Of a DNA stretch of 64,000 nucleotides, positions 14,410 through 60,640 are shown piece by piece. The stretch comes from Eggerthellaceae bacterium. Lineage in GTDB: Bacteria > Actinomycetota > Coriobacteriia > Coriobacteriales > Eggerthellaceae. Each line of letters opens with the position of its first letter. Position 1 is the first letter of the stretch. Where the stretch lies: the NCBI GenBank assembly GCA_050951095.1, contig JBMNIQ010000002.1, positions 239,099 to 303,098 of the forward strand, in the 5' to 3' direction. A program made the translations under genes and the position numbers. The notes under the pieces were generated by a model. That model had not been told where the DNA came from. It ran no database searches and saw only the letters and a list, made by a program, of their open reading frames with translations.

Positions 14410-15153
14410 TGGGCTTTCCATCCCCTCCCCATCTTTAAATGCCGATAAGGCGTCTGTTCCGCTTGCCCATGAAAGATGCCTCGGCAAAGCAAGTGAATGT
14501 GCGAGCCGATTGGGGCGGGCAAGCGGGAAACGTGGAGAGATGACACGCAGAAACGCTATCTAGATACCATTTCATAGCAGATGTCAATCTCTTCCCGGTA
14601 AAACAATTAATAGATAGCATATTTTACTAAGGTTGTCACTTAGCAAGATAATGGCAATGTGTTTGGGATTACAGCTTTGAATATTTGTGCGCTGCATCGT
14701 TATGAGCTTCTGATTAGGCGCTACTCGCCAGGCTTCGCCCGCTATCTCAACGCGTGGTAGTACGCGATGGCAATCTGAGTGCGGTTCTCCAGGCCTCGTT
14801 CGAACTTATGGCCTCGAACGTGCAGGGCTTGGCGCAGCTCACGCCGGGATATTGGCGCAATGAGGTGCTGACAATTGCGTTTACAACAAGCGATTGAAGT
14901 GTCCTGGCAGGTCGGGTAACGACGGATTTGGGTATGCTAATGCTGTTTGCTGTGGTGACGGCGCTGGTGGGAATGGCATTGTCGCGGGTGCATGCGCTGT
15001 GTTCGACAAGGGCGGTGTAGACGGCTCGTACGGCTGAGTAGAATCGAGGGTATTGTTTTGTGGGCAGGGATGCGGCCTGCTTAGAGTTTCGTCGTTTCCG
15101 TTTTGAATGGTTAGTGAGAAAAGCGTCGATAACGTTTTCAAGAAGAGGAGCAA

Positions 15154-15507
15154 ATGATGCAAGCGACCGATTGGCAAACGTTCGTGTCGATGTATCAGGC
15201 CTTGGACGCGGCATACGACGAAGGGAAACCCCAAAAGGTCTTCTCGTTCATCGCCGATGCCAACCCTAACATCTGGAAAGGCAGGGTTTCGGGCGATCCA
15301 GCCGTCTTCTCCGAGTTCTCGGAAGCCTTCGCCGAGCGCTTCCCGCAGGGGAAGGCGGATCCCGCCGCAGCGGCGGAGTTCGCGCGAGCGTTCCTGTCAA
15401 AGCAGAACGCGGAGTACGGCTGGGCGAAAGGTGACCTCGTGGCGTCCTTCGACTCCGTCGTGACCCCCGAGCTTTGGGAGAGGGCCCTTTCCGAGGCTCC
15501 TGAGTAG
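15154..15507 (+). CDS. Hypothetical 117-aa acidic protein (paralogue of 16122-16478)
   Basis: GAGGAG RBS upstream. The two copies differ at ~28 synonymous codons versus 5 replacements (hand alignment), which supports real coding. Confidence 0.65.
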   Translation: MMQATDWQTFVSMYQALDAAYDEGKPQKVFSFIADANPNIWKGRVSGDPAVFSEFSEAFAERFPQGKADPAAAAEFARAFLSKQNAEYGWAKGDLVASFDSVVTPELWERALSEAPE

Positions 15508-15532
15508 TTGAACGACAACCGCTCAACCAAAA

Positions 15533-15618
15533 GCAGGTCAGAGGAAAAATGTCCTCTGGCCTGCATCATTTCATGGTGCCCCCGGGCGGATTCGAACCGT
15601 CGACACCCGCTTTAGGAG
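15533..15618 (-). repeat. att copy 1: terminator hairpin plus 45-nt 3' segment of tRNA-Arg(CCU)
   Basis: 15574-15618 is identical to 27547-27591. The hairpin at 15533-15564 matches 27506-27537. Confidence 0.85.
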
Positions 15619-15778
15619 TGGGTCGGAGGGGTGTACTCGCATACGTATGGATTGCAAAACGCCTGTTCAGAGCGGTATGTGTCGGTTGGCGAAGGTAAAG
15701 AAAATCCTGCCTCCGCCAGGGTTTCTGGCCATTTTATGGCCATGAACGTCTCTGCCTAGACGGTATTTCGGAAGCCTC

Positions 15779-15835
15779 GGTGACGATGGTGACGATAGTG
15801 ACGATGGTTCACATATAGGAGTCTTCATCGTCACC
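15779..15835 (+). repeat. GTGACGAT palindromic module P1
   Basis: GGTGACGATGGTGACGATAGTGACGATGG-TTCACATATAGGAGTCT-TCATCGTCACC. Confidence 0.8.
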
Positions 15836-16121
15836 GGCGATCCAATTGAAGCGGCGACCGGCTCGCGTCTCCGGTCTCGCTTGCACTGGGATTCCGCTGT
15901 AAATCTTCATGCTCGGCAACCCGAACGCGCAGCGAGCGCAAAAGAACGCCTCGGCATGCGAGAATGCTTGAAGATGGATCCCAGTTATGGGCATCGGTCC
16001 TTAATGGTGTTGTGCAAAACTGCGGGAAGAACGACCCTCCGCACTCCTGGGACGACGAAACGGGGCTGAGTCGAAACATTAGCAAAACCGCCGATAACGT
16101 TTTCAAGAAGAGGAGCAAATA

Positions 16122-16478
16122 ATGCAAGCGACCGATTGGCAAACGTTCGTGTCGATGTACCAGGCCTTGGACGCAGCATACGACGAGGGGAAATCCCAGA
16201 AGGTCTTTTCGTTCATTGCCGACGCTAACCCGAACATCTGGAAGGGTAAGGTGTCGGGCGACCCGGCTGTCTTCTCTGAGTTCTCGGAGGCCTTTGCCGA
16301 GCGCTTCCCGCAGGGGAAGGCGGATCCCGCCGCCGCCGCGAAGTTCGCGCGAGCGTTCCTGTCCGAGCAGAACGCGGAGTATGGCTGGGCGGAAGGCGAC
16401 CTCGTGGCGTCCTTCGATTCCGTCGTGACCCCTGAGCTTTGGGAACGTGCCCTTTCCGAGGCTCCTGAACAACCATAA
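16122..16478 (+). CDS. Hypothetical 118-aa acidic protein (paralogue of 15154-15507)
   Basis: Same RBS context as the other copy. About 96% amino-acid identity with mostly synonymous nucleotide differences. Confidence 0.65.
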   Translation: MQATDWQTFVSMYQALDAAYDEGKSQKVFSFIADANPNIWKGKVSGDPAVFSEFSEAFAERFPQGKADPAAAAKFARAFLSEQNAEYGWAEGDLVASFDSVVTPELWERALSEAPEQP

Positions 16479-16582
16479 ACGACAATCGCTAACGATAGTA
16501 GGATAGAGAAAGATGCCTCTGTTCCGCCGCTTATGGTCTAAATTTGGCACATTATCCGAAATCGATGTCTTCGAAGCAAAAA

Positions 16583-16667
16583 GCAGGCCAGAGGTAACAC
16601 GTCCTCTAGCCTGCGTATTTACTGGTGCCCCCGATACGATTCGAACCGTCGACACCCGCTTTAGGAG
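16583..16667 (-). repeat. att copy 2: diverged terminator hairpin plus 45-nt tRNA-Arg 3' segment
   Basis: 16623-16667 matches 27547-27591 with 4 mismatches (ccgatacg vs ccgggcgg). Confidence 0.8.
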
Positions 16668-16827
16668 GGAAACGGGGAGGGCGAGGACGTTCGCAAAGAT
16701 TGAAAAACGCCTGTTCAGAACGGTGCCCGTCCATCAACGGCGGTGAAGAAAACCGGGATTGAAGCGGAAATTCGGGCCAAATTCGGGACGGGGCCGACCC
16801 TCGGAGAACGACGGGATGGCCCATGCA

Positions 16828-16866
16828 GGTGACGATGGTTCACATATAGGGGGTTTCATCGTCACC
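16828..16866 (+). repeat. GTGACGAT palindromic module P2 (single-repeat version)
   Basis: GGTGACGATGG-TTCACATATAGGGGGTT-TCATCGTCACC. Confidence 0.8.
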
Positions 16867-16960
16867 GAGCGCCTTTTCCAGAAGCCGCCGCCGGCGTTTT
16901 CGACCCGGGAAGCCCGGGGCAGGCCCTCCCGATCGCCTTGAGGCCCGTCTCAAGCCGGTG

Positions 16961-16989
16961 TTGACATATCGCATCCGTCGCTCTATTCT
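16961..16989 (+). promoter_or_regulatory. Candidate sigma-70-type promoter of arsR
   Basis: TTGACA, 17 nt, TATTCT. It lies immediately upstream of the operator at 16993. Confidence 0.5.
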
Positions 16990-16992
16990 CAT

Positions 16993-17008
16993 ATCAAAAT
17001 TTTTCGAT
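16993..17008. promoter_or_regulatory. Candidate ArsR operator 1 (near-palindrome ATCAAAATTTTTCGAT)
   Basis: An identical 16-mer recurs at 17387-17402. This copy lies 15 nt before the arsR ATG. Confidence 0.55.
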
Positions 17009-17022
17009 GTGAGGAGGCTTCC

Positions 17023-17331
17023 ATGGCGAGGGACAACGAGAGGGACGCGAGGGTCTTCAAGGCGTTCTGCAACGAGTACCGCCTCCAGGTGCTCGAGAGG
17101 CTGCGCACCGGGGAGAAGTGCGCCTGCGACCTGCTGGATCACATCGACATCAGCCAGTCGAACCTCTCGCATCACATGAAGATCCTCGTGGACTCGGGCG
17201 TGGTGTCGGCGCGCCAGGACGGCAAGTGGACCCACTACTCCATCGACCCGGAGGGGGCCAGGGCGGCGGTCGAGCTGCTCGAGGAGCTCACGACGATCCG
17301 CGGCGGCGGAGGTGGCTGCTCCTCCTGCTAG
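17023..17331 (+). CDS. arsR: ArsR/SmtB-family metalloregulator
   Basis: Winged-HTH with a CAC metal site (EKCACDLLDHIDISQSNLSHHMKILVDSGVV) and a C-terminal CSSC. Confidence 0.9.
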   Translation: MARDNERDARVFKAFCNEYRLQVLERLRTGEKCACDLLDHIDISQSNLSHHMKILVDSGVVSARQDGKWTHYSIDPEGARAAVELLEELTTIRGGGGGCSSC

Positions 17332-17386
17332 GGAGGGAGCCGTTCGACGAAGAGCCGCCGCGCGCGGCGTTTTTCTGGGCCAACAC

Positions 17387-17402
17387 ATCAAAATTTTTCG
17401 AT
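17387..17402. promoter_or_regulatory. Candidate ArsR operator 2
   Basis: Same 16-mer as 16993-17008, 21 nt before the acr3 ATG. It is preceded by a GC hairpin plus T5 (17353-17376). Confidence 0.5.
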
Positions 17403-17422
17403 ATGTGAAGGAGACAATCAAC

Positions 17423-18490
17423 ATGAGTCCTAGCGAAAACAGGAAGGGCGCGGCGTCCGGCCTCGGGCTTTGGGACCGGCTGCTCACCCTCTGGATCTTC
17501 CTGGCGATGGGAGCCGGCATCGCCATAGGGGCGGCGTTTCCGGGGTTCTCGGAGGTCCTCGGGGGGCTCTCGATGGGCACCACCAACGTGCCGATCGCCG
17601 TCGGCCTCGTTCTCATGATGTACTCGCCGCTCGCCAAGGTTCGCTACTCGGAGATGCCCAAGGTCTTCGCCGACAAGAAGCTCCTCGCGCTCTCGCTCCT
17701 GCTCAACTGGGTGGTCGGGCCGCTCCTCATGCTCGCGCTGGCCGTCCTGTTCCTCGCGGACATGCCCGAGTACATGGCGGGCGTCGTCATGATCGGGCTC
17801 GCCCGCTGCATCGCGATGGTCCTCGTGTGGAACGAGCTCGCCGGGGGCTCATCGGAGTACGCGGCCGGGCTCGTGGCCCTGAACGCCGTCTTCCAGGTCC
17901 TCCTCTACGGGCCGATGGCCTGGCTGTTCCTCTCCGTGCTCGCCCCCGCGCTCGGCGCCCGGGCGGTCGCCGTCGACGTCTCCATGTGGCAGATAGCCCA
18001 GGGCGTCCTCGTCTACCTCGGCGTCCCTATGGCCGCCGGCGCGCTCACCCGGCACCTGGGCGTGAGGGCGCTCGGCGAGGAGGGGTACGCGCGGCGCGTG
18101 ATCCCCAGGATATCGAAGATCACCCCGGCCGCGCTGATCTTCACCATCGTGGTCATGTTCTCGCTGAAGGGCGGAATGATAGCGACGCTGCCCTACGACG
18201 TCGCGAGGATCGCCGTCCCGCTGGTCGCCTACTTCTGCACCATGTTCTTCGCCAGCTCCTGGCTCGCGCACCGGGCCGGGGCCGACTACCCGCGCATGGC
18301 CTCGGTGGCCTTCACCGCTACCGGCAACAACTTCGAGCTCACCATCGCCATCGCCGCCGCCACGTTCGGGCTCGCCAGCGGGCAGGCCCTGGCGGCCGTC
18401 GTGGGGCCCCTGGTCGAGGTCCCCTCGCTCATCCTGCTGGTGAACGCCGCGCTCGCCCTGAAGCGGCGCTGGTACGAGGGGAAGGGGTAG
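17423..18490 (+). CDS. acr3: ACR3-family arsenite efflux transporter
   Basis: Start at MSPSENRK (ATG 17423, GAAGGAG upstream). It is a ten-helix protein with an ACR3-type N-terminus (LGLWDRLLTLWIFLAMGAGIAIG). Confidence 0.85.
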   Translation: MSPSENRKGAASGLGLWDRLLTLWIFLAMGAGIAIGAAFPGFSEVLGGLSMGTTNVPIAVGLVLMMYSPLAKVRYSEMPKVFADKKLLALSLLLNWVVGPLLMLALAVLFLADMPEYMAGVVMIGLARCIAMVLVWNELAGGSSEYAAGLVALNAVFQVLLYGPMAWLFLSVLAPALGARAVAVDVSMWQIAQGVLVYLGVPMAAGALTRHLGVRALGEEGYARRVIPRISKITPAALIFTIVVMFSLKGGMIATLPYDVARIAVPLVAYFCTMFFASSWLAHRAGADYPRMASVAFTATGNNFELTIAIAAATFGLASGQALAAVVGPLVEVPSLILLVNAALALKRRWYEGKG

Positions 18491-18493
18491 CGG

Positions 18494-19495
18494 ATGGAGG
18501 CGTTCGGGTCGTTCGTCATGGACCAGCTGCTCAAGATGCAGTGGCTGAGCGGGCTCGTATGGAGGCTCCTGTCGCCCCTCGGGCTGACGGAGGGCACGCA
18601 ATGGGGCGAGACGCTCCACTTCTTCGTGTACGACACGGCGAAGATCGTCATCCTGCTCGTCACGATGATATTCGCGATCGGGTACGTCCAGAGTTTCTTC
18701 CCGCCCGAGCGCAGCCGCAGGATCATGGGGCGCTTCAGGGGGTTCTGGGCCAACGTCGTGGGCGCGCTCTTGGGTACTGTCACTCCGTTCTGCAGTTGCA
18801 GCTCGATCCCGCTGTTCATCGGGTTTACGAGGGCGGGGCTGCCGCTGGGGGTCACCTTCAGCTTCCTCATCTCATCCCCTATGGTCGACCTGGGGAGCCT
18901 CGTGCTCATCATGAGCATCTTCGGGCCGGGCGTGGCAGCCGTCTACACGGTCGTGGGCCTGATGATTGCCATCTTGGGCGGCGCGTTTATCGAACGCCTT
19001 CACATGGACGACCAGATCGCCGACTTCGTGCGGGGAGACGCGCCCACCGACGCCGAGCTCCTGGCCATGAGCGTGCGCGACCGGCTCGCCTTTGCGGGGC
19101 GCGAGACATGGTCGACCTTCAAGAAGGTGTTCCCCTACGTCCTCGCCGGCGTCGCGATAGGCAGCCTCATCCACAACTGGATACCTCAGGACGCCGTCGA
19201 GCTCGTGCTGGGCGACCAGAACCCGCTCGCGGTCGTGCTGGCCACCGTCGTCGGCGCCCCCATCTACGCGGACACCTTTGGCGCCATCCCCATTGCCGAG
19301 GCGCTCTACTACAAGGGGACGCAGCTGGGCACGGTTCTGGCGTTCATGATGAGTGTCACGGTGCTGTCCATCCCCAGCTTGACCATGCTCTCGCGGGTTG
19401 TGAAGCCCAAGCTCCTGGCGACGTTCGTGGTGGTCTGCATGGTGGGGATGATTATCAGCGGATATGTCTTCAACTTCCTACAGCCCTTGTTATAG
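18494..19495 (+). CDS. UPF0718/ArsP-like permease with a TPFCSCSS motif
   Basis: Polytopic protein with the motif GTVTPFCSCSSIPLF. It is followed by the small redox-active disulfide protein that typically partners this family. Confidence 0.75.
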   Translation: MEAFGSFVMDQLLKMQWLSGLVWRLLSPLGLTEGTQWGETLHFFVYDTAKIVILLVTMIFAIGYVQSFFPPERSRRIMGRFRGFWANVVGALLGTVTPFCSCSSIPLFIGFTRAGLPLGVTFSFLISSPMVDLGSLVLIMSIFGPGVAAVYTVVGLMIAILGGAFIERLHMDDQIADFVRGDAPTDAELLAMSVRDRLAFAGRETWSTFKKVFPYVLAGVAIGSLIHNWIPQDAVELVLGDQNPLAVVLATVVGAPIYADTFGAIPIAEALYYKGTQLGTVLAFMMSVTVLSIPSLTMLSRVVKPKLLATFVVVCMVGMIISGYVFNFLQPLL

Positions 19496-19549
19496 GAGGA
19501 GCTTCTCAATAGCTGTCCAAGACACAGGCGTTTTGAAAGGAGAAAAACG

Positions 19550-19774
19550 ATGACAAAGGTTCAGGTAATGGGCTCGGGGTGCAAGAAATGCCGCCAGCTC
19601 TACGAAAACGCCGTGGAGGCGCTGGGCGAGGACTCCGTTGAGTACGTCACCGACATGGAACGCATCGCAAATGCCGGCATAATGACCACACCAGCCCTGG
19701 TAGTCGACGGAAAGCCCGTGAGCACGGGCAAGGTGCTCAAGCCCTCCGAGATTTCTGCCCTGGTCTCGGACTGA
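19550..19774 (+). CDS. Thioredoxin-fold small protein (redox-active disulfide protein 2 type)
   Basis: 74 aa with CKKC near the N-terminus (MGSGCKKC) and the TPALVVDG motif. Confidence 0.8.
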   Translation: MTKVQVMGSGCKKCRQLYENAVEALGEDSVEYVTDMERIANAGIMTTPALVVDGKPVSTGKVLKPSEISALVSD

Positions 19775-19778
19775 TTCT

Positions 19779-19822
19779 GAGGGGCAGCCGCGCGGACCGG
19801 CGTCAATCGCGGCTGTCCCCTC
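19779..19822 (+). terminator. 14-bp-stem hairpin after the ars cassette
   Basis: GAGGGGCAGCCGCG-15 nt-CGCGGCTGTCCCCTC. There is no clear U-tract. Confidence 0.45.
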
Positions 19823-19927
19823 TGCTGACACCGCTGCGCACTGGTAAAACCGCACAGCAGTCCTCCTCGCTCCACAGAGGTCGGAGCTGATACCACCGTC
19901 TTCGAAATCGGCGAAACCGTCTCCGGT

Positions 19928-20191
19928 GTGTCAATCGTCAACGATATCGCCGACGTGTACGGTAACGGCGTCCACGTGGCGAGACTCGAGTACCCTCAAG
20001 CTGTGGCTTTCGACACCGACGGCGGGGTGCTCATGCTGGACAAGGAGGTCTGGTTCTCGGAGATAACCGCCATCAAGAGGGGCGACGGCATCGACGGGCT
20101 CCTATACGACGACTCAGCCAGCTGGGAGGACCGACCGGACGAGGACCCCACGACCCACTACGAGTTTCTAACGGAGATGCAGGAACTCTAG
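19928..20191 (+). CDS. Hypothetical acidic 87-aa protein
   Basis: ORF only, with a GTG start. No motif recognised. Confidence 0.3.
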   Translation: MSIVNDIADVYGNGVHVARLEYPQAVAFDTDGGVLMLDKEVWFSEITAIKRGDGIDGLLYDDSASWEDRPDEDPTTHYEFLTEMQEL

Positions 20192-20237
20192 GTAAGTGAT
20201 GACTTTACCGACGCCTTCTTCAATGCATGGTCATCCC

Positions 20238-20292
20238 GTGACGATGGTGACGATAGTGACGATGATTGATATATAAGGGGCTTATCGTCACC
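20238..20292 (+). repeat. GTGACGAT palindromic module P3 (abuts the integrase 3' end)
   Basis: GTGACGATGGTGACGATAGTGACGATGA-TTGATATATAAGGGGCT-TATCGTCACC. Confidence 0.8.
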
Positions 20293-20355
20293 GTTGGCTC
20301 GATCGACCGGAGGCCGCCCCTCTTCTTGGTTTCCGCAGCGGTGTTTCTACGCTGC

Positions 20356-21720
20356 TTAGCCGGCTGCTCGCATGACGAATTCGTCCAGATCGCAGAGCTT
20401 GGCGCACTCCGTCACCACGAGCCCCGCTCCGTTGCATTCCTTGGCCCAGCAAGCGCCACGCGTTGCATCGTCGGGGGACTCCGTCCATTGCCTGCAGTTG
20501 CGACATTGGGTTTCATTGCCATTCGGCGCGACTAGCGTGCCTATTCTCCGCGCCGCCTCGCGCTTCCACTCGTCGTTGGTGTGGGTGTAGACGCTGTACG
20601 CCTGAAGGCTCTTGTGCCCGGAGAGGTCCCGTGTTGTCCTCTCGTCCATGCCGCAATCACGCGATAGGAAGGTCACATAGGTGTGGCGAAGGCCGTGGAA
20701 CCCAAACCCTTCCGGCACCGGGTAGCGCTTTCGCTCCTGCGCGAACCATCGGTCGAACCGCGCCTGCTGCACGTGGTTTCCCTTGCTGCTGCTGACGATG
20801 GGCATCCCGGTGCTCCATTTCAGGCCGACCTCGTCGCACCATTCTTGCTGGCTCTCCCGCCAACTCTCTAGCAGCGGAACGAGCGGAGGCGGGCAGGGAA
20901 CGATGCGCTCCTCGCCGTTCTTCGTGGACTTGGTCCTCTGGCTGTTCTTCTCCAGGCTGCGGCGGACGTCGAAAAGCCCCCTGTCGTAATCGTCCCAAGT
21001 GAGGGCGAGGACCTCGGAAAGGCGGAACCCGCACATCAACGCGAGGAGCACGCCCATCGGCAGCGCCGCGGGAGGCTCCGATGCGATCAAATCAAAGAGT
21101 TCCTGCGCCTGTCTCGGCGTGAGCGCAGACTTCTCAGGAGTGTCGTTCTTCGGTATGGTCGCCTTGTCGCATGGGTTCACGGTAATGAAGCCGTAGTCGA
21201 TCGCCTTGTTGAACATGCACGAGAGCACGCTATGGGTACGTCGCAGCGTCGTGCCGCTGTAAGGCTTTCCTCTGGGGTTAAGCTTGCCACCGGTGCGCAT
21301 CTCAGCGTACATCTTGTCGATGCTGAGGCTCGTTACCTGATCAAGGCGCTTTTTGCCGATATAGGGAATGGTTCTCGATAGGCATTCGCGGTCAGTTCTC
21401 ACCGTTCGGTTCGAAACGACCATCTGCCCCGCTCTCAGCTCGCAGTACGTCTCCGCGAACTCGCGCACAGTGGGAATGTGCTTGGCATCCTTCCGCCTCG
21501 CGTTGCGCCTGTATTCGGAGATGTTCGCTCGGTTGCCCCCGTGGTAAACGAAGTCGTTAATTTCCTTGAGGACGGAAACCGCTTCCGCCTCGCTCTCGAA
21601 ATCCTCCTGGTAAGCCTCGTACCGCTTCGTCTCATCGTTCCAACCGAGGGGGTAGCGAATCTGCCAAGTGCCGCTATTCCGTTGCCGGAAACTGCCCTTG
21701 TTATGCGGGATCTGCGCCAT
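20356..21720 (-). CDS. int: Tyrosine recombinase/integrase with a ~75-aa Cys-rich C-terminal tail
   Basis: Start at MAQIPHNKG (ATG 21720). Catalytic signature: GFRLSE (R), HGLRHTY (HxxR), GHKSLQAYSVYTH (H..Y). The tail is CRNC..C..C..C..C. Confidence 0.85.
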   Translation of the reverse strand: MAQIPHNKGSFRQRNSGTWQIRYPLGWNDETKRYEAYQEDFESEAEAVSVLKEINDFVYHGGNRANISEYRRNARRKDAKHIPTVREFAETYCELRAGQMVVSNRTVRTDRECLSRTIPYIGKKRLDQVTSLSIDKMYAEMRTGGKLNPRGKPYSGTTLRRTHSVLSCMFNKAIDYGFITVNPCDKATIPKNDTPEKSALTPRQAQELFDLIASEPPAALPMGVLLALMCGFRLSEVLALTWDDYDRGLFDVRRSLEKNSQRTKSTKNGEERIVPCPPPLVPLLESWRESQQEWCDEVGLKWSTGMPIVSSSKGNHVQQARFDRWFAQERKRYPVPEGFGFHGLRHTYVTFLSRDCGMDERTTRDLSGHKSLQAYSVYTHTNDEWKREAARRIGTLVAPNGNETQCRNCRQWTESPDDATRGACWAKECNGAGLVVTECAKLCDLDEFVMRAAG

Positions 21721-22897
21721 CGGCCCCCGCGGCCTTCCTGCGGTTGGCATCGCGCACGCGGCATGCGTCGCTGCAGTAGTCCTTGCGCGTTCCCCGCTCG
21801 TTGGAGAGCACGGCGTTGCCGCAGAGGCGGCACACGGTGATCCGCTTGCCCTCGTGGTACGAGAGCGCGTACCAGAGCGCCGAGGCGAACGAGCGGCACA
21901 GGATGCGCGGGGCGTCGATGTTCTCATGCTCGCCGGAAACGTCGTACTCCCAGCCCGCCTTCTCGCCCTCGAGGTCCAGGTTCACGTACTCGTAGCTGAA
22001 CGACTCGACCACGGAGCGGGCCATCGCCCCCTGGTCCCCGGAGTCCTCGACGCAGAGGTAGAGCGTCCGGTCCTCAGCCGGGACGCGGTTGGGGCGGAAA
22101 AGGCTCCCCCAGGAGGGCAGGTCGTCGGTGGCGAGGGGCTTGGTGGTGAAGAACACGCCCTCGTTTCGGGGGTCGGGATAGCTCGGCGTTATGTCGCCGA
22201 CTCCGGGGATGCTCGTCGCGCGCCTCGCCTTCGGGGCCATCGCCGAGAACAGCGGGTCAGAGGCCGCGTCCACCGCCGCGCTCTTGGCGGGCTTGGCGAA
22301 GAACGGGTTGAACTTGGCAGGTATCACGAGCAGGGGCGCGCCGATGCGCTTGTTGTCAACGCGCTCGAAGCCGGCCTTCGCGAAGATCTGCGGCTCGCCG
22401 CCCTCCATGAGGCCCTTGAGCCTTAGCGCCGTCGAGAGCTGGTTGCGCACGGCCATCCAGTCCTGCACGGGCTCTACCAGGACGGTGAACTCGTCGGAGA
22501 GCGAACCCATGCGCTCCGCGGCCCCCGCGCCGTCGCGGCAGTACTTCTCGACGAACTTCCCGAGCGCGAGGCCGTTGGCTCGCAGGCCCTCGGCGGAGTC
22601 CAGGAAGAGCTCGGCAGCAAGCACGTCGGCGTCGCAAGCGGTGAAGACGGCGGAGAGGAGCTTCGCGGCGTCCGCCGGCGCGAGCATGCGGGGAACCCCC
22701 GCCAGGCTCTCGACGGCGACGATCGGGGGCAGGCCGTCGACGATCTGCACGAGCGCCCCGGGGGCCTTCACGGCGAGGAGGGCGTTGAGCGCGGAGGGGT
22801 CCGGCTCGAAGCTCTCGCGCCTCGCGACGTCGGCGGGCACCGCCCTGACCAGGTAGTGCGTCCTCGTCTTTTTGTTCCTCGTGATGCAGGCGAGCAT
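21701..22897 (-). CDS. Orphan 398-aa protein with a C-terminal zinc-ribbon (CRLC...CSDAC), co-transcribed with int
   Basis: Its stop overlaps the integrase start by 20 nt. No family was recognised by eye. Confidence 0.6.
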   Translation of the reverse strand: MLACITRNKKTRTHYLVRAVPADVARRESFEPDPSALNALLAVKAPGALVQIVDGLPPIVAVESLAGVPRMLAPADAAKLLSAVFTACDADVLAAELFLDSAEGLRANGLALGKFVEKYCRDGAGAAERMGSLSDEFTVLVEPVQDWMAVRNQLSTALRLKGLMEGGEPQIFAKAGFERVDNKRIGAPLLVIPAKFNPFFAKPAKSAAVDAASDPLFSAMAPKARRATSIPGVGDITPSYPDPRNEGVFFTTKPLATDDLPSWGSLFRPNRVPAEDRTLYLCVEDSGDQGAMARSVVESFSYEYVNLDLEGEKAGWEYDVSGEHENIDAPRILCRSFASALWYALSYHEGKRITVCRLCGNAVLSNERGTRKDYCSDACRVRDANRRKAAGADGADPA

Positions 22898-23047
22898 GCG
22901 GGCCCCCTAGATGATCAAGTTACGTCTTTTAGGTCAGTATACCGTTAAATTACGCTATTGCAACATGCTTAGCCGTATGTGATAATCGCGCTAACGGCAT
23001 AATTATAAACGATGCTGTTAACCGTAAATCGAAGAAAGGAGCGAAGG

Positions 23048-23248
23048 ATGGACGAGCTGCTCAACCTCACGGAGGCGTGCGAGGTAATGCACGTGTCCTA
23101 CTCGAAGGGCCAGAAGCTGGCGAAGGCGGGCGCGCTGCCGTTCCGAAAGCTGGGAGCGACCTGGTACATATCCCGATCGGCGCTCTACCGCGAGCTCGGG
23201 ATGGAGGCACCGCGCGGTAAGGAGGAGGACGAGAAGACATGCGCATAG
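23048..23248 (+). CDS. Excisionase-family HTH DNA-binding protein
   Basis: LLNLTEACEVMHVSYSKGQKLAKAGALPFRKLGATWYISRSAL. AAAGGAG RBS. Divergent from the ORF398-int operon. Confidence 0.75.
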   Translation: MDELLNLTEACEVMHVSYSKGQKLAKAGALPFRKLGATWYISRSALYRELGMEAPRGKEEDEKTCA

Positions 23249-23352
23249 ACGAAACGCCCGCCGCGGCCGGTGAAATCTTGGCGGAAGACACGGCCGGGCA
23301 GGCGCCTGCGCCCGGAATCATACCATCCGGCACCGATGCGGGGGCGATGTAG

Positions 23353-23556
23353 ATGGCGCGCAGCTTCTTCTCCGACATGCTCGCCGATGAGCGCCTTCTG
23401 AGCAAGCACGGGCTCGACGCGTGGCCAGAGGAGCGCGAGCTCGCCCGCTACCTGTTCGACCTCGAGGGCAAGGTGGACGCGATCGCCAGGGCGAGCGGCC
23501 TCGCGGTCGAGAAGGACGTGCGGGGCAACTGGCAAGTCTCCCGCCTGGGGCGGTGA
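23353..23556 (+). CDS. Hypothetical 67-aa protein
   Basis: ORF ends 6 nt before the AAA ATPase start. No motif recognised. Confidence 0.4.
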   Translation: MARSFFSDMLADERLLSKHGLDAWPEERELARYLFDLEGKVDAIARASGLAVEKDVRGNWQVSRLGR

Positions 23557-23561
23557 GCCCC

Positions 23562-24566
23562 ATGGCAGCAGCGCTCGAGACGCACGACGCCCAGTGGCTG
23601 CTCGAGCAACCGCTTCCGAAGCACAGCTGGCTCGTGGAGGACCTGATCTCCTCCGGGCTCGTGCTCCTCGTGGGCGCGCCCAAGATCGGGAAGTCGTGGG
23701 CCTCGCTGCAGCTCGCCCTGGCCGTGAGCACCGGCCAGCCGTTCCTCGGGTTCGCCACCACGCAGGGCGACGTGCTCTACCTCTGCCTCGAGGACACCTT
23801 CCAGCGCGTCCAGCAGCGCCTGTTCCGCCTCACCGACGAGGCGAACGACCGGCTCCACTTCGCCGTGGACGCCGAGAAGCTCAGGTGCGGGCTCGTCGAG
23901 CAGCTCGAGGCCTTCGCCGGCGCGCACCCGAGCCTGCGGCTCGTCATCGTGGACACGTTCCAGGCTGTGCGCGTTCCCACGGCGGAGAGCGCCTACAAGG
24001 CGGACTACGGCGACCTGGGCGAGCTCAAGAGGTTCGGCGACGAGCGCGGGATAACCGTCGTGGCGGTGCACCACACCAGGAAGATGGGCGACCCGTCCGA
24101 CGTGTTCAACACGGTCTCGGGAACCAACGGGATCACGGGCAGCGCCGACGAGACCATGGTGCTCGCCAAGGCCAACCGCTACGACGGCACCGCCACCCTC
24201 AACGTCACCGGGCGCGACGTGGAGATGGCCGAGTACCGGCTGCGCTTCCGCGACTGCCGCTGGGAGCTCGTGGGCAAGACCAGCGAGGAGGAGCTCGAGG
24301 AGCGTGAGACGCCGGACGCCGTTCTCGCCGTGCTCGACTTCATGGCGGGCAACGTGACGGGTTGGCGCGGGACCGCCACGAGGCTCATAGCGGACGCGGG
24401 GATAGACGGGGTCAGGCCCAACGTGCTCTCGAAACTCCTCAACGAGCACAGCGACTTCATGGCCGAGCGGGGCGTGCGCTACTCGAGCACCAGAACGAAC
24501 GCAAGCCGCATGCTGCGCCTCGAGAACGTGCCTCCCGAACAATCCCGAGGGCGAGAATCGCGATGA
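23562..24566 (+). CDS. RecA-fold AAA ATPase of the RepA/AAA_25 type (island replication protein candidate)
   Basis: Start at MAAALETHD (ATG 23562). Walker A LLVGAPKIGKSW, Walker B LRLVIVDTFQ, sensor VVAVHHTRK. Confidence 0.75.
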   Translation: MAAALETHDAQWLLEQPLPKHSWLVEDLISSGLVLLVGAPKIGKSWASLQLALAVSTGQPFLGFATTQGDVLYLCLEDTFQRVQQRLFRLTDEANDRLHFAVDAEKLRCGLVEQLEAFAGAHPSLRLVIVDTFQAVRVPTAESAYKADYGDLGELKRFGDERGITVVAVHHTRKMGDPSDVFNTVSGTNGITGSADETMVLAKANRYDGTATLNVTGRDVEMAEYRLRFRDCRWELVGKTSEEELEERETPDAVLAVLDFMAGNVTGWRGTATRLIADAGIDGVRPNVLSKLLNEHSDFMAERGVRYSSTRTNASRMLRLENVPPEQSRGRESR

Positions 24567-24650
24567 TGGCAAGTAGCCTGATTCGTGCGCACAACGCTCA
24601 AATCGGGCGCTCGCCGGGATGCAGCTTGTTGCAGGTTCACGGGACAAAAC

Positions 24651-24846
24651 AGCACAATAGTGTGCTCTTTTGCCCCAGGATTTCCGTGCAGCAAGCTACC
24701 CATTGTGTGACACAAATCGTCACACAATGGATTTCGCATCGTTGATAGCAAGCTACCTATTGTGTGCGCACAAAGCGCGCACACAATCCCCGCTTGCCCG
24801 AAGGCCCGGGTCTCCCCACGCCCCGCCACTATGGAGGGTGGCGGGG
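24651..24846. promoter_or_regulatory. Cluster of hairpins/iterons sharing the CACACAAT/ATTGTGTG motif (candidate origin or operator array)
   Basis: Hairpins lie at 24651-24666, 24700-24730 (12-bp stem), 24759-24787 (11-bp stem) and 24821-24846. The two middle ones are each preceded by GCAAGCTACC (24691, 24748). Confidence 0.5.
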
Positions 24847-24991
24847 CCCGCCGGGCCTTCTCTCTTCGGCGATGCGATGTGGGGGGAGCCCCCGCGCCCC
24901 TGGGACAGAACAAAGCCCGAAAACCCACAGGCCGGAACCCCACACTCTCGGGTACCATTGGAAAACGGAAACCGATCACCCGGGAGCAACC

Positions 24992-25735
24992 ATGCCGATA
25001 GAATTCCGCGACGACTTGCCTTATGACCCGACCGACAAAAAGTCGGTAATCGCATATGCCGGCGCGCTCGTCGGCCACACGCTGCGCGAGGCGACCGACG
25101 CCGGCTCCATCGAGGTCCCGAAGGTCCGCCGCGGAGCTTTCGGCGACAGCGTCGAGTACAGCTACTTCGGAATCGAGCCGAACAGCGTGCAGGGCCCCGA
25201 TTTCCCCGAAGCGGGGCTCGAGCTCAAGACGACCCCGTTGAAGATGACCAAATCGGGCAAGCTCGCCGCCAAGGAGCGCCTCGTCATCACCATGATCGAC
25301 TACATGTCCGTCGTGGACGAGGAGTTCGAGACCAGCACGCTCGTCGACAAGGCGAGGGATATCCTGCTCGTCACCTACCTCTACGAGAGGGACAAGGACC
25401 CGCTCGACTACGTCGTGGAGCTCGCCACGGAGTGGGGCCTCCCCGAGGAGGACATGCCGGTGTTCAAGGAGGACTGGGAGACCGTCGTCGGCAAGGTGCG
25501 CGCGGGCAAGGCGCACGAGATCTCCGGCAGCGACACGCTCTACCTGGAGGCCTGCACCAAGGCGTCCGACTCGTCCATCCGGCGCAAGCAGCCCTTCTCG
25601 GACGTTCCCGCCAAGCAGCGCGGGCGCGACTTCGCAATCATCCTGTCGTGCCTGGCCGAGGAGGGGTACTCCGTGGAGTGGCGCGTGATCAACGCCGCCG
25701 AGTACGGCATGCCCCAGAAGAGGCGCGCGCAGGCG
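24992..25735 (+). pseudogene. Dead R-M system: Sau3AI/MutH-type endonuclease N-terminal part fused to an internal fragment of a C5 cytosine methyltransferase
   Basis: MPIEFRDD... contains DFPEAGLELKTTP and YLEACTKA (MutH/Sau3AI-like). After ...SDVPAKQRG the frame continues as DFAIILSCLAEEGYSVEWRVINAAEYGMPQKRR (Dcm motif VIII context), then it is cut by the IS. Confidence 0.6.
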
Positions 25736-27003
25736 CTCGCGTTTATCGCCTGGCGCGCTATCGCGAGCGCCTGCGCGCGCCTCTCCTCGCCGATCTCGGC
25801 GGGCTCCGGCCGCTCCGCGTAGAGCTCGGCGATCTTGCCGGCGGCGAAGTAGCGGGCCTCCGACCATTCCTCGTCCTGGTCGCACATCACGGCGCCCACG
25901 AGCCTCAGCAGCGAACCCGCAGACGGGAAGACCTGCACCACCCTCGACCTGCGCTTTATCTCGCGGTTGGTGCGCTCCTGCAGGTTGTTGGTACGCAGGC
26001 GCTTCCAGTGGGACCGCGGGAAGTCGAGGTACGCCAGCGCGTCCGGCTCGGCCTCCTCCATGATCGCCGCCGCCCTCGGGCAGCAGCCCTCGAGCATGTC
26101 GATGGCGACGTGGTACATGGCTCGGACGACGTCGGCGTCCTTTGCCCTGAACACGGGCGCGATTATCCTGGCGACGCGCCTGGAGAGCGGGCCGCGCCCG
26201 GCCTCGCGGATGCAGTTGCGCATCAGGTGCACGGCGCACCGCTGCCAGGCGGCGCCCTGGAACGCCTCTGCGATCGCGCGCTTTAGCCCCTCGTGGGCGT
26301 CGGACACGACGAGCTCCACGCCGCAGATGCCGCGCTCCCGCAGGCTTCTCAGGAAGGCCGTCCACGAGTCGTAGGACTCGGTGTCCACCACGTCGAAGCC
26401 CACGACGTGGCGCCAGCCGCCGTCGTCGCAGCCGATCGCGGTCACTACGGCGGTGGAGGCGACGTGCCCCTCCGACCTGCACTTGACGTAGGTGGCGTCG
26501 AGCCACAGGTAGGGCATCCTCGTGCCGCGCAGGTCGCGGCCGAGCAGCTCGTCGGCCTCGGCGTCCAGGCTCTGCGCGATGGCGCTCACCTGGTCCTTCG
26601 ACAGGCGCTCGATCCCCATCTTCGCCGCGACCTTGGCGACCTTGCGGGTGCTGGTGCCGGTGGCGTACATCTCCGCGACCGTTGCGGCCACCGCGCGGTC
26701 GACGCGCTGGTATCGCTCGATGACGTCCTCGGGGAAGAAGCTGCCGCTCCTGAGCTTGGGGATGCGCAGCGTGAGCGTGCCGACGCAGGTCGCGAGCTTG
26801 CGCTCCCTGTAGCCGTTGCGGGCGTTGCCGGTGGCGCCGCACAGCTGGTCGGCCTCGGCGCTCATGATCTCGTTCACCAGCGTCTCGGCCATGCACCTGA
26901 TGAGCTCCTGCATGTTGACGGTGCCGTCCGCGAACCTGGGCATCTGCTGGGGCGCCGGCGCGGTGACGGCCGCGTTCTCTGGTATGATTTCCATCGTGGT
27001 CAT
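25540..27003 (-). CDS. tnp: IS256-family (mutator-type) transposase; the last ~75 codons probably read through the IS end
   Basis: MTTMEIIPE... matches the typical IS256 layout (ADQLCGA, YLWLDATYVK, VVSDAHEGLK, WQRCAVHLMRN). Family proteins are ~410 aa. Confidence 0.85.
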   Translation of the reverse strand: MTTMEIIPENAAVTAPAPQQMPRFADGTVNMQELIRCMAETLVNEIMSAEADQLCGATGNARNGYRERKLATCVGTLTLRIPKLRSGSFFPEDVIERYQRVDRAVAATVAEMYATGTSTRKVAKVAAKMGIERLSKDQVSAIAQSLDAEADELLGRDLRGTRMPYLWLDATYVKCRSEGHVASTAVVTAIGCDDGGWRHVVGFDVVDTESYDSWTAFLRSLRERGICGVELVVSDAHEGLKRAIAEAFQGAAWQRCAVHLMRNCIREAGRGPLSRRVARIIAPVFRAKDADVVRAMYHVAIDMLEGCCPRAAAIMEEAEPDALAYLDFPRSHWKRLRTNNLQERTNREIKRRSRVVQVFPSAGSLLRLVGAVMCDQDEEWSEARYFAAGKIAELYAERPEPAEIGEERRAQALAIARQAINASACARLFWGMPYSAALITRHSTEYPSSARHDRMIAKSRPRCLAGTSEKGCLRRMDESDALVQASR

Positions 27004-27082
27004 TGCCTTTCACTCGAACCTGACTTGTCGTGATTTCAGATTCTAGGCGATGGCCACACCCTTTCACAGCGGCGCTATCGCG
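25750..27082 (-). mobile_element. IS256-family insertion sequence (boundaries approximate)
   Basis: Contains the transposase ORF. An 11-bp direct repeat GCGCTATCGCG at 25755-25765 and 27072-27082 may be the target duplication. I could not confirm terminal inverted repeats. Confidence 0.6.
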
Positions 27083-27286
27083 CCTCGGCCCTTACACCAA
27101 CTTTTCCGACGCGATCGCGCCTTCTGCATGGGCAACGCGCTCGTCGTGGGCATTCCTCATCGGATTGGAACAATCATAGCGGGAGAGCAAGAAGGGTAAT
27201 TTCTGGACTCGATGCCTGTTCGCATTCAGCGACTTCGGTGCATTGAAAGAACGCGACTGAAGGTATTGAGATCCAACCCATGGCCC

Positions 27287-27343
27287 GGTGACGATAAGAC
27301 CCTCTATATCGAAAAGACCGTCACCATCGTCACCATCGTCACC
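27287..27343 (-). repeat. GTGACGAT palindromic module P4 (inverted relative to P1-P3)
   Basis: The reverse complement reads GGTGACGATGGTGACGATGGTGACGG-TCTTTTCGATATAGAGGGTCT-TATCGTCACC. Confidence 0.8.
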
Positions 27344-27505
27344 GTTTCGCTGTAAGTAGGCTGAACCGGAGCGGTCTCCTGTTTCGCTAAATGGCGTAAA
27401 CGTCGGTTGCCGACGTGTGCTATCTGCGTCCATTTGTCGAGCTCATGAAAGAAATTCTGGCCAAATTCTGGCCATCGGGCCGAAAAGTATCCCCTAAAAC
27501 GCAAA

Positions 27506-27537
27506 GCAGGTCAGAGGAAAAATGTCCTCTGACCTGC
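27506..27537 (-). terminator. Terminator hairpin of tRNA-Arg
   Basis: GCAGGTCAGAGGA-loop-TCCTCTGACCTGC, followed on the minus strand by TTTGCGTTTT. Confidence 0.7.
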
Positions 27538-27546
27538 GGTTTCATC

Positions 27547-27622
27547 TGGTGCCCCCGGGCGGATTCGAACCGTCGACACCCGCTTTAGGAGAGCGGTGCT
27601 CTATCCCCTGAGCTACGGAGGC
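27547..27622 (-). tRNA. tRNA-Arg (anticodon CCU), CCA encoded
   Basis: The hand-folded cloverleaf has acceptor GCCTCCG/CGGGGGC, anticodon stem CCGCT/AGCGG, loop CUCCUAA and T-loop GGTTCGAATCC. Confidence 0.9.
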
Positions 27623-27630
27623 GAAGTTAA

Positions 27631-27662
27631 TACCGAGAGGCTATTGTAGCAGCCTCTCGGTA
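27631..27662 (-). terminator. Hairpin after pknB
   Basis: TACCGAGAGGCT-8 nt-AGCCTCTCGGTA, 4 nt downstream of the pknB stop. Confidence 0.5.
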
Positions 27663-27665
27663 CGA

Positions 27666-29618
27666 TTAATTGCTCGATTTGCTGCTCTTGGATGAGCTGC
27701 TGGAGCTCGACGAAGAGCTTGAGCTGCTGGAACTCGAAGAGCTGCTGCTGGATTCCTCCACCGTCAGGTAGATGGTGTCGCCCTTCGACGCGGACGTGGG
27801 GGAGTAGCCGGTTACCGTGCCACTTGTGCTGCTTGCACTTACCTTGAACCCTGCAGCGCGCAGCGTGCTGGTAGCGGACTTCACGGACATGCCGGTGACG
27901 TTCGGAACATCCACTTCATTCGGGCCCGTGCTGACCACGATGGTGATCGTGGAGCCCTTGTCGGCCTGCGAACCACCCGACGGGTTCTGCGAGATAACGT
28001 CGCCCTTGCTTACCGTGTCGCTGGAATCGTTCGTGACGTACACTTCGAAGCCGGCGTTGCTCAGCGTGCTGGTAGCCGAACTCTGGCTCTGGCCGGTGAC
28101 ATCCGGCACGGAGACCTGCGAAGGACCAAGCGAAACAACGTACGTGACTTCGCTGCCCTTATCTACCAGCGTATTTGCCGACGGGTCGGTGCTGATGATC
28201 TTGCCCTTGGCAACCGTATCGGAATTCTGCGAATCGCCAGCCGTAGCGGTCAGGCCTGCTTCCGTCAATGCGGCAACGGCCTTCGCCTCCGACTTGCCGG
28301 TCACGTCGGGCACGTTCACCTGCTCTGTGCCCTTCGACACGTTGATGTTCACACGCGTGCCCTGATCAGCCTGCGTGCCTGCCTGCGGGTCCGTGCTGAC
28401 AACCTTGCCCTTTTCGACGGTGGTGCTGTACACCTCCGTGACGGTGCCGATGGAATAGCCGTCGCTCGACAGCGTCTGCTCGGCGGTGTTCAGCTCCTGG
28501 CCGGTGACATCCGGCACGGTGTGCGTATTCATCATGGCCCAAGCGGCATAGCCGATGGCTGCGGCAATAAGGAGCAACAGGATAACGATGAGCGCCTTCT
28601 TCTTGCCGCTCATCTTCTGCTTCTTGCCGCTGTTCGCACGGAAGTCCGTCTTATGCGAAGCCGGCTGGTTGTCATCCTTAATGGCATTCATGACCTTCGT
28701 GGTACCGGCGCCGGCGGGCACATAGGCACCAGCAGGGGCGGCAGCCGTATTCATCTGCTGCGTCCGCGCTTCGGAGAAGCGGTTGCCCAGGCGTCCCGCC
28801 AGGTAGTCCGTCAGCACCTGGCGCATTTCCAGAGCGGTGGAGAAGCGACGGTTCGGGTCCTTCTCCATGGCCTTCATGATGATGCTTTCCAGGTTCGGGT
28901 CGATGTCGGGTACCCAATGGCTGGGCGGCTCCGGCGTCTCCTTCACCTGCTTCATGGCAACGCTGACGGCATCGGGGCCGTCGAACGGCAGATGGCCGGT
29001 CACGGCTTCGTACATGACAATGCCCAGCGAATAGATGTCGCTTGCAGCGGTGAGCTCCTTGCCCTGCGCCTGTTCCGGCGAGATGTAATGCGCCGTTCCC
29101 AGCACGGACGAGGTCTGCGCCTTCATGGAGTTCTTCGCGCGTGCAATGCCGAAGTCCATGACTTTGATGTTGCCATCAGGCTGAATCATGATGTTCTGCG
29201 GCTTGATGTCGCGGTGGATGATGTCCAGATGATGGGCTACGCTCAGCGCCTGGCATACCTGGGAGCCGATCTGCGCCACCTTGCGTTCGCTGATGGCGCC
29301 GCGCTCCTGGATAGCGGTCTTAAGGTCGGATCCGCGCACGTACTCCATGACGATGTAGTACGTGCCTTCGTCCTGACCCCAGTCGTAAACATTGACGATA
29401 TAAGGACTCTGCAGGTTGGCGGCAGCAGAGGCCTCTTGTCGGAAACGACGGGTGAAATCGGGATCTTCCGCGTATTGAGGGAGCATGACCTTCACGGCCA
29501 CCACTCGGCCGAGCACGTTGTCCTGGGCACGGTAAACCTCTGCCATGCCACCGATGCCAATGCGCTCAGTGATGCGGTAACGTCCGTTGAAGGTTCTGCC
29601 AACCATGTTTCCGGCCAC
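27666..29618 (-). CDS. pknB: Ser/Thr protein kinase with four PASTA repeats and a C-terminal poly-Ser tail
   Basis: [22 protein letters not shown], DFGIA and SPEQ motifs. A TM helix is followed by four ~65-aa PASTA units. GTG start behind AAGGAG. Confidence 0.92.
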   Translation of the reverse strand: [650 protein letters not shown]

Positions 29619-60416: not shown

Positions 60417-60640
60417 TGACGGGGGTGATGACAGGTGAGGGGGCTGGTGGAGACCCGTGTTGTACGTTGGTGTCATCGTTGTCATCACTTATATGGGCAA
60501 GGGTGGTGGCCTCGCGCGCGGGCGCGCGCGCGCGCATGCGCGGGGGACTGCGGCCCGATTGGCGATGACGTGATGACGCGGGGCGTTCGCGCAGGTGGCG
60601 GGGCGGTTTCGCGTCATCGGCGGCGTGATGACGGCCGGGC
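60414..60640. repeat. Non-coding cluster of GTGATGAC / GTCATCAC repeats plus a (CG)n run
   Basis: GTGATGAC lies at 60414, 60426, 60571 and 60626. GTCATC(AC) lies at 60473, 60482 and 60613. TTATATGGG is at 60490, and an alternating CG run is at ~60511-60545. Confidence 0.7.

Follow-up and report, generated by a model that had tools for sequence, protein, structure and literature searches.

Palindromic modules of an Eggerthellaceae tRNA-Arg island follow a winged-helix AAA_25 helicase and may be its loading sites

Staphylococcus aureus pathogenicity islands (SaPIs) encode Rep helicases that serve as initiators themselves, by means of a C-terminal winged helix; the short iterons read by this domain lie immediately downstream of rep, half of them on each side of an AT-rich centre and in opposite directions, and two hexamers are thought to self-load there (PMC9371898). 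In this work we describe a set of sites of comparable build in a 64-kb stretch of DNA from an Eggerthellaceae bacterium (the window, to which coordinates refer unless another locus is named), where an integrative island at a tRNA-Arg gene carries a tyrosine integrase, an arsenic-resistance (ars) cargo and an AAA_25 helicase. Four palindromic modules are found in the window, each consisting of one to three tandem GTGACGATR units, an AT-rich spacer of 17-22 bp and one inverted unit. According to our analysis the module follows the AAA_25 winged-helix helicase, and we propose, giving this reading somewhat better than even chances, that the modules are iteron clusters, the cognate DNA sites of the island's RepA/DnaB-like winged-helix helicase, of a replication-origin type similar to the SaPI ori. 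Predicted binding of the modules by the helicase, taken alone, we rate at about the same level, and origin function proper is less certain than binding.

As in the SaPI origin, the helicase with a C-terminal winged helix (here a predicted one) is encoded by an integrative island, short opposed iterons surround an AT-rich centre and, in metagenome relatives, the iterons begin immediately past the helicase open reading frame (ORF), with no separate initiator evident. The two systems differ in that the helicase described here is a RecA-fold protein of superfamily 4 (SF4) belonging to AAA_25 and resembling RepA and DnaB, whereas SaPI Rep is of the AAA+ SF3/MCM-like kind; in that the units are of 9 bp instead of 5-6 bp; and in that the site in the window lineage is duplicated, asymmetric (3+1 units) and placed at both backbone ends beside the attachment (att) arms instead of behind the helicase gene. 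Since the helicase is of the SF4 RecA fold and not AAA+, the system would be SaPI-like in its working and not a member of that group by descent; no SaPI Rep was among the PDB-profile and Foldseek matches of the helicase, which were RepA, DnaB, Twinkle and RadA. Another parallel is offered by satellite phage P4, whose alpha primase-helicase, equipped with a C-terminal winged-helix origin-binding domain, binds ori and crr with their type I octamer iterons. Phage P4 is likewise a tRNA-integrating element with a tyrosine integrase, its helicase ends in a winged helix and binds 8-bp iterons in both orientations, and two separate iteron clusters lie kilobases apart on one element; unlike the helicase of the island, P4 alpha joins a primase to an SF3 helicase, and no sequence relation between the two was detected here. 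Of the proteins with a solved structure, RepA of the IncQ plasmid RSF1010 comes closest to the helicase core (1g8y, E = 8.5e-9, template-modelling (TM) score about 0.7); this RepA lacks a winged helix, and the oriV iterons of RSF1010, which are 20-bp direct repeats, are bound by RepC, an initiator distinct from the helicase.

The four modules and their common architecture, which the original prediction had read from the letters of the window, were borne out at the positions given there, and the chance expectation for such structures is zero. Module P1 (15779-15836, plus strand) reads along the plus strand GGTGACGATG GTGACGATA GTGACGATG gttcacatataggagtctt CATCGTCACC and resolves into three tandem 9-bp units (GTGACGATG, GTGACGATA, GTGACGATG), an 18-bp spacer of 33% GC (ttcacatataggagtctt) and one inverted unit (CATCGTCAC). 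Module P2 (16828-16867, plus) has a single unit, a 19-bp spacer and an inverted unit, while P3 (20238-20293, plus) repeats the build of P1 with three units, spacer and inverted unit, and P4 (27286-27343, minus) reads GTGACGATG GTGACGATG GTGACGGTC, the third and inner unit being GTGACGGTC, followed by a 22-bp spacer and an inverted unit. Counted per side, P1, P3 and P4 are of the 3+1 and P2 of the 1+1 type, and the spacers have 33-42% GC in a window of 61.5% GC. The 8-mer GTGACGAT occurs 19 times against 2.27 expected (0 of 100 shuffles reach 19), and for the palindromic pattern GTGACGAT-N15-25-ATCGTCAC the count is 3, where 0.00 would be expected; P4, with GTGACGGT as its inner unit, falls outside this exact count. 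Tandem Repeats Finder (TRF) also detected the 9-bp arrays in P1, P3 and P4, the modules with several units, P2 having one. The 8-mer had not been seen in the rest of the 64 kb by the original prediction, but six further copies exist (12442, 13628, 13685, 24716, 35423 and 36225), all of them singletons, none forming a module. Two of these, at 13628-13692 and 57 bp apart, are coding and belong to a large SpaA-domain surface-protein gene (12187-14487, minus).

P1 and P2 are each separated by 160 bp from a 3' fragment of tRNA-Arg (fragment 1, 15574-15618, and fragment 2, 16623-16667), and P4, on the helicase side of the backbone, by 203 bp from the 3' end of the intact tRNA-Arg(cct), in agreement with the distances of about 160 and 200 bp estimated earlier. 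P3 had been described as directly abutting the integrase stop; its inverted unit does face the stop codon (20356-20358), but across a gap of 63 bp, the corresponding gap in most relatives being 8-15 bp, and P3 is the canonical integrase-adjacent copy seen in them. P1 is part of a decayed element copy, and P2 is the distal end of the remnant of an ars-carrying element. The view of the module as a non-coding, conserved cis-site of an integrative element, located in the outer part of each att arm, is upheld by our analysis.

The evidence that ties the module to the helicase comes from JGI/ENA metagenome contigs, which were searched with the pattern GTGACGATRGTGACGRT-N15-25-ATCGTCAC. The exact module is present in at least 120 contigs, mostly of human gut origin, and none was found in viral contigs. 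These metagenome modules are single and symmetric, mostly with 3+2 or 3+3 units; the gene directly before the module is an AAA_25 homologue 35-43% identical to that of the window, and the integrase of the same contigs is 24-30% identical. When the 120 module contigs, 11 of them too short to judge, were screened with a hidden Markov model of the 77 C-terminal residues of the helicase, a gene with the winged-helix domain ended no more than 200 bp from the first unit in 97 of the 109 assessable contigs, with a median gap of 0 bp. Nine module contigs had no winged-helix domain, and two of these (loci L109 and L134 of our collection) are att arms of the window type. In L097, the one metagenome element of which a detailed map was made, the 3' end of guaA is followed by HTH_3, integrase (Pfam Arm-DNA-bind_4), a NikA-like gene, AAA_25, module, orf184, Mob_Pre relaxase and methylase; the att site lies at the guaA end, at a distance of 3.6 kb from the module, and beside guaA stands a repeat different from the module (GGCAAC, twice, at an 11-bp period). 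Homology among loci of the L097 type ends at the outer edge of the module.

The same winged helix is not confined to the AAA_25 scaffold. Its motif FM..W.GT.TEL...PN.L.K.LN is also fused to other proteins that adjoin larger GTGACGAT arrays, namely a 727-aa PrimPol-type protein (L165), a 564-aa protein (L092) and a 710-aa protein (L136). An Enterococcus faecalis plasmid encodes an AAA_25 homologue 49% identical to that of the window, and two tandem 3+1 modules with a TAGGATA-type spacer come right after its stop codon, which ties the asymmetric architecture of the window directly to the helicase gene. On this plasmid (LR962508.1; L213, record 15139-28083) the AAA_25 gene and its modules lie about 2.5 kb from tet(O), and this links such elements to antibiotic-resistance cargo in clinical enterococci. 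In the plasmid collection the helicase was found in only 7 records, so there is no support for a common stand-alone plasmid Rep. No published match was returned by a literature search for the module sequence, and the site-protein pair is apparently undescribed as well as widespread in gut mobile elements.

The protein side is consistent with a helicase that could read its own site. Among PDB profiles the AAA_25 protein best matches the hexameric helicase RepA of RSF1010, followed by Twinkle and DnaB; Foldseek aligned its model with RepA at TM 0.68-0.70, and its PHROG matches are the helicase parts of primase-helicases. The AlphaFold2 (AF2) model, with a mean predicted local distance difference test score (pLDDT) of 82.5, has a RecA-like core and a predicted C-terminal winged helix of the order H-S-H-H-S-S at residues 250-322, with pLDDT of about 90. 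This domain is conserved across 13 relatives, and the motif W268-G270 ... PN.L.K.LN is kept from the window protein to those of Firmicutes. The family is a large one, with more than 2,000 homologues at E <= 1e-10.

A second line of evidence is given by elements that share the integrase. The integrase family of the window is tight, comprising about 40 proteins of 41-74% identity followed by a large gap, and a scan of 185,579 species genomes returned 37 loci in Eggerthellaceae, Collinsella, Slackia, Raoultibacter and Denitrobacterium. In about 20 of the 37 a module (inverted unit, spacer, three units) begins 8-15 bp past the integrase stop, and a second, inverted module lies about 9 kb from it; the units vary around a constant RTGACR core. 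In L007 (integrase 74% identical) the tRNA is followed after 200 bp by a module and the helicase; further along come the integrase, cargo and an inverted module, the last at 160 bp from the tRNA fragment. In L008/L011 (73% identical), where the unit is ATGACGAT, one module is 8 bp past the integrase stop next to the intact tRNA and the other beside the tRNA fragment, and in L029, whose target is tRNA-Leu, the modules are 195 and 225 bp from the att repeat. For the Collinsella and Raoultibacter elements no att repeats were found, nor was the right end of L097.

Integrase, orf398 and HTH_17 are present in all groups of this family that were compared, which differ in the remaining genes and in the site. 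The window, L007 and L008/L011 have AAA_25 and the RTGACR module, with NikA, the type IV coupling protein (T4CP) and relaxase absent. L212, L028, the Collinsella elements L016-L027 and L046 have AAA_25, NikA, T4CP and relaxase, and in them the module flanks the backbone. L034-L039, L045, L047 and L035 keep NikA, T4CP and relaxase (44-54% identical) and carry a VapE-like gene (PF05272) in the place of AAA_25; the module is absent from them. Directly after the VapE gene of this L034 group there is a different 9-bp iteron, GGTGCCGAT (L034 6532-6686), arranged as two forward copies, 62 bp, two reverse copies, plus 1+1, so that the swap of the helicase coincides with a changed site, as expected of a cognate pair. 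The iteron GGTGCCGAT is one base different from GGTGACGAT. From this distribution across the integrase family it follows that the module tracks the AAA_25 helicase, and not the integrase, orf398, the excisionase or the relaxosome. Of the functions offered in the original prediction, an arm-type recombination site, an oriT-like region and a cassette recombination site, none fits best; the view of a cis-site in the att arms is retained.

From the observed sequence, copy structure, conservation and co-occurrence with the winged helix we infer binding, melting and origin function in the following way. The winged helices of a helicase oligomer would bind the 9-bp RTGACGRYN units, opposed across the AT-rich spacer; the spacer would melt and the helicase would load itself, and the module may then act as an origin-type loading site on the excised, or still integrated, element. 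If this is true, a cis-acting replication site and a likely binding domain become defined for a very common, uncharacterised helicase family, found in Coriobacteriia and Firmicutes of the human gut on integrative and mobilisable elements, some of which carry arsenic-resistance, tet(O) or defence genes, and the logic of a self-loading helicase with its iterons would extend from the AAA+ Rep of SaPIs to a RecA-fold RepA/DnaB-like scaffold. RTGACGRYN at a 9-bp period, opposed across about 20 bp, is also a simple signature by which such elements and their boundaries may be found in metagenomes.

A number of observations weigh against a helicase-loading site. No module of the window adjoins the helicase gene: P3 sits by the integrase, and P4 is 2.7 kb from the helicase stop, or roughly 380 bp if the insertion at 24902-27283 is left out of account. 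In the Coriobacteriia lineage the modules are regularly placed near att, at either end of the backbone, and a plain origin would not predict such a placement. One side of each window module has a single unit, to be compared with at least two per side in SaPI origins. The L031 group is the one exception in the family comparison, having an AAA_25 homologue (41% identical), NikA and relaxase together with integrase, orf398 and HTH_17, and no RTGACR module; in the putative recognition helix of its helicase, an Asn that is otherwise nearly invariant is replaced by Ser. Neither a primase nor an initiator acting with the helicase was identified, the repeats of about 29 bp behind the helicase gene (24561-24776) might themselves be the true origin or form a further cis-site, and all the evidence that links helicase to module is co-occurrence.

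The regular placement at the ends deserves separate consideration. In the Coriobacteriia lineage the conserved backbone has two inverted 3+1 modules at its ends, both placed immediately inward of the att arms; one follows the integrase stop, the other is on the helicase side, and in an excised circle they would be about 400-470 bp apart across attP. In addition, the backbone from integrase to helicase (20444-24901) is collinear with L007 and inverted relative to L008 (11277-6818) and L011 (11277-6815), the ars operon and both att arms remaining collinear, and in the window the inverted block is bounded by P3 and P4, which are inverted repeats of each other. It might be suggested on these grounds that the helicase-module pair has an architectural or regulatory role, instead of or besides origin firing, such as an end pairing that couples excision to replication, a copy control of the handcuffing type, or inversion of the backbone. 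The constant position of the inverted pair and the bounds of the inversion would suit such a role, and extra iteron clusters with pairing or enhancer functions are familiar from the ori and crr of phage P4 and from plasmid handcuffing. We nevertheless regard it as unlikely, taking in mind that elements of the L097 type manage with a single symmetric module away from att, that the inversion could have been a rare homologous event and that end pairing is without direct evidence.

A bolder form of the same thought, to which we also assign a low probability, is that the two inverted 3+1 modules are halves of a divided helicase-loading system flanking attP, by which replication licensing would be physically coupled to site-specific recombination. 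If so, either excision would bring the modules within about 400-470 bp of each other or the helicase would pair the island ends before excision, and the inverted pair would also let the whole backbone flip relative to the tRNA, as between the window and L007 on one side and L008/L011 on the other. From the SaPI model one would not expect a duplicated arrangement that flanks the ends beside the att arms; it could reveal a coupling of excision to replication.

The position of the modules in the att arms had made an arm-type site our first working hypothesis, according to which the modules would be outer arm sites for the N-terminal domain of the integrase and serve intasome assembly on both arms, as P1/P2 and P'1-P'3 do in phage lambda. 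Much in the geometry agrees with it: in the window, L007, L008/L011 and L029 both arms have a module at 160-255 bp from the core whose tandem units are core-proximal, and in about 20 relatives a module starts 8-15 bp after the integrase stop. The integrase also has the right build, since strands 10-13, 19-28 and 33-41 and helix 44-59 of its AF2 model form an N-terminal domain of the arm-binding type and its best Foldseek matches are full-length lambda Int. Short tandem repeats in both att arms, and an integrase with a lambda-like N-terminal domain, are shared with lambda, where tandem arm sites do occur (P'1-P'3), and the module unit resembles the lambda arm consensus around GTCAC.

The metagenome scan, the presence/absence comparison and the Eggerthella locus L212 led us to downgrade this hypothesis, which we now hold to be quite unlikely for the modules. 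Elements with the identical module number more than 100, and their integrases, 24-30% identical to that of the window, have a barely alignable N-domain; the module is absent from the L034-L047 elements that keep the same integrase family over residues 1-448; unlike lambda arm sites, it thus does not co-occur with the integrase family, and it can be kilobases from the core, as the 3.6 kb of L097 show. In L212, where a 0.9-kb Abi_2 gene has been inserted between core and module, the latter has kept its place at the integrase stop, 1.15 kb from the core, and it is an 11-bp repeat, TTCTGCTCAT in four copies, that remains at the core. The position expected of arm sites is here taken by such repeats, different from the module. 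Direct repeat pairs with an 11-bp period occur between core and module in each lineage that was inspected, and also in the arms of L031, which lacks the module; they are lineage-specific, as would be expected of arm sites: GTCCCGAAT in L007, GGCACA in L008 and TTGAACGGAAT, twice in both arms, in L031. In the window they are found, all on the plus strand, at 15722-15743 between the core and P1 (TTTATGGCCAT x2, by TRF), at 16768-16789 between the core and P2 (AAATTCGGGCC / AAATTCGGGAC, read directly) and at 27452-27474 between P4 and the tRNA (AAATTCTGGCC x2.1, by TRF). Because they stay at the core and differ between lineages, these 11-bp repeats are better candidates than the modules for the arm sites of the integrase, or of an excisionase.

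Mobilisation was considered too: a NikA-like ribbon-helix-helix protein would bind the modules, which would be oriT or accessory sites of the relaxosome, and proteins of this class typically bind short tandem or inverted repeats. In L097-type loci the NikA-like gene, AAA_25 and module are followed about 250 bp on by a MobV relaxase, many relatives are mobilisable, and in Eggerthella and Collinsella relatives the NikA-like, T4CP and relaxase genes lie within the module-flanked backbone. The distribution of genes speaks otherwise, and makes this function very unlikely in our estimation: homologues of NikA, the coupling protein and the relaxase are missing from the clade of the window, L007 and L008, whose modules are well conserved, and the L034 group has all three and lacks the module. 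Relaxases that do adjoin modules come from unrelated families (Mob_Pre and PF03432), and loci of the L135 type offer a more conventional candidate for oriT in another inverted repeat, which lies closer to the start of mobV. The inverted units of the module are able to pair as a 10-bp hairpin, which would fit a relaxosome site, but the DNA folding z-scores are modest (-1.4 to -3.9) and the pairing register is ambiguous. A hairpin or rolling-circle nick site was rejected on the same folding values, and no HUH protein was found. Neither orf398, which has no family match beyond its C-terminal zinc ribbon and is present in the module-less L034 group, nor a small DNA-binding protein common to both element families was retained as a binder, the 67-aa protein and the NikA-like protein of L097 being unrelated; orf398 was rejected as a relaxase as well.

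That the module recurs because the island comprises several element copies was foreseen in the original prediction, and comparison with L134, which is 83-95% identical to the window, indicates how the copies came together. The order in L134 is integrase, P3, orf87, then a unit of module, arm, tRNA fragment and hairpin, then a unit from the thioredoxin gene to arsR with P2, arm and fragment 2, and finally cargo, module, arm and fragment 3; the first of these three units is missing from the window. By this comparison the island of the window is a tandem array at tRNA-Arg, made of a complete element (P4 to P3), the distal end of an ars element (P2) and a further remnant (P1), in which the P2 end was joined to the complete element by an internal deletion. 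The complete element, together with the distal ends of the two decayed tandem elements to which it is fused, accounts for the four module copies.

This history also accounts for P2 and P3 as direct repeats around the ars cassette, which had been taken for a bracket, and tandem integration with internal deletion leaves no need for a cassette-recombination function. Sites of the integron attC kind, used for insertion and excision of cargo such as the ars operon, would be in line with the P2/P3 bracket and with homology between related elements that often ends at the outer edge of the module. We find this idea scarcely tenable, as L134 has module, arm, tRNA fragment and hairpin between orf87 and the ars genes (94.8% identity), which explains the window by a deletion in a tandem array, and L008/L011 carry the same ars operon with only one flanking module. 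The 19-bp spacer between the inverted units is moreover too long for a tyrosine-recombinase core site. Two other possibilities were examined and set aside: a promoter or operator, as no consensus match overlaps any module and P3 would fire antisense into the integrase, and an RNA element, as there is no Rfam match at any module (E <= 1).

The genes of the island run in the order arsR, ACR3, arsP, thioredoxin-like and orf87 (plus strand), integrase and orf398 (minus), HTH_17, two small ORFs and AAA_25 (plus), and an IS256-family transposase. The ars cargo (17023-19774, plus; ArsR, ACR3-type SBF, ArsP permease and thioredoxin-like protein) is collinear with L008/L011 and L134. The tyrosine integrase of 454 aa (20356-21720, minus) has a lambda-Int-like N-terminal three-strand sheet with a helix and a C-terminal Cys4 domain; this mini-domain is invariant in the family (C406, C409, C424, C443) and is unusual among tyrosine recombinases. 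Its conserved partner gene, orf398 (21701-22897, minus), overlaps the integrase start by 20 nt and encodes a C-terminal CxxC...CxxxC motif; beyond this zinc ribbon no Pfam, NCBIfam or PDB match was obtained, and no relatives of known function were detected. The helicase operon begins with an excisionase-family HTH_17 gene of 66 aa (23048-23248, plus) and includes the 334-aa AAA_25 gene (23562-24566, plus), with its RecA-fold core like that of RSF1010 RepA and DnaB and its predicted C-terminal winged helix, the proposed binder of the module. The region between 24902 and 27283 is absent from L007, where homology picks up at 27284, so that roughly 2.4 kb is inserted in the window; an IS256-family (Transposase_mut/MULE) transposase gene (25540-27003, minus), not at this place in L007, lies there between the helicase-side region and P4. 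Two long minus-strand frames reported before, 'ORF399' and 'ORF862', are spurious ORFs of high-GC DNA, the true genes being the plus-strand AAA_25 helicase and the IS256-family transposase. A 113-aa gene call of the source assembly that spans P4 (27092-27433, minus) has no family match and is probably spurious. No second integrase or AAA_25 homologue was found elsewhere in the 64-kb window.

The integration target is the intact tRNA-Arg(cct) (27547-27622, minus), with the att core in its 3' part, and tRNA fragments 1 and 2, also on the minus strand, are displaced copies of this core, each with a terminator hairpin before it. An ORF of 117/118 aa is duplicated with about 90% nucleotide identity (15154-15507 and 16122-16478), and each copy is followed by the terminator hairpin and the tRNA-Arg 3' fragment; as the three are repeated together, the duplication of the att core took in part of the downstream flank of the tRNA. 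The AAA_25 gene is followed immediately on its 3' side (24561-24860) by four to five copies of a repeat of about 29 bp, TGTGCnnACAAnnTAGGnAGCTTGCTAC, and then by a GC-rich hairpin (24800-24860), with the same arrangement at L007 375-800 and L008 6820-7100, in a clade without relaxase genes. A palindromic repeat set of similar style is found at 60410-60495, where GTGATGAC stands twice at an 11-bp period and is followed, after about 33 bp, by two copies of GTCATCAC.

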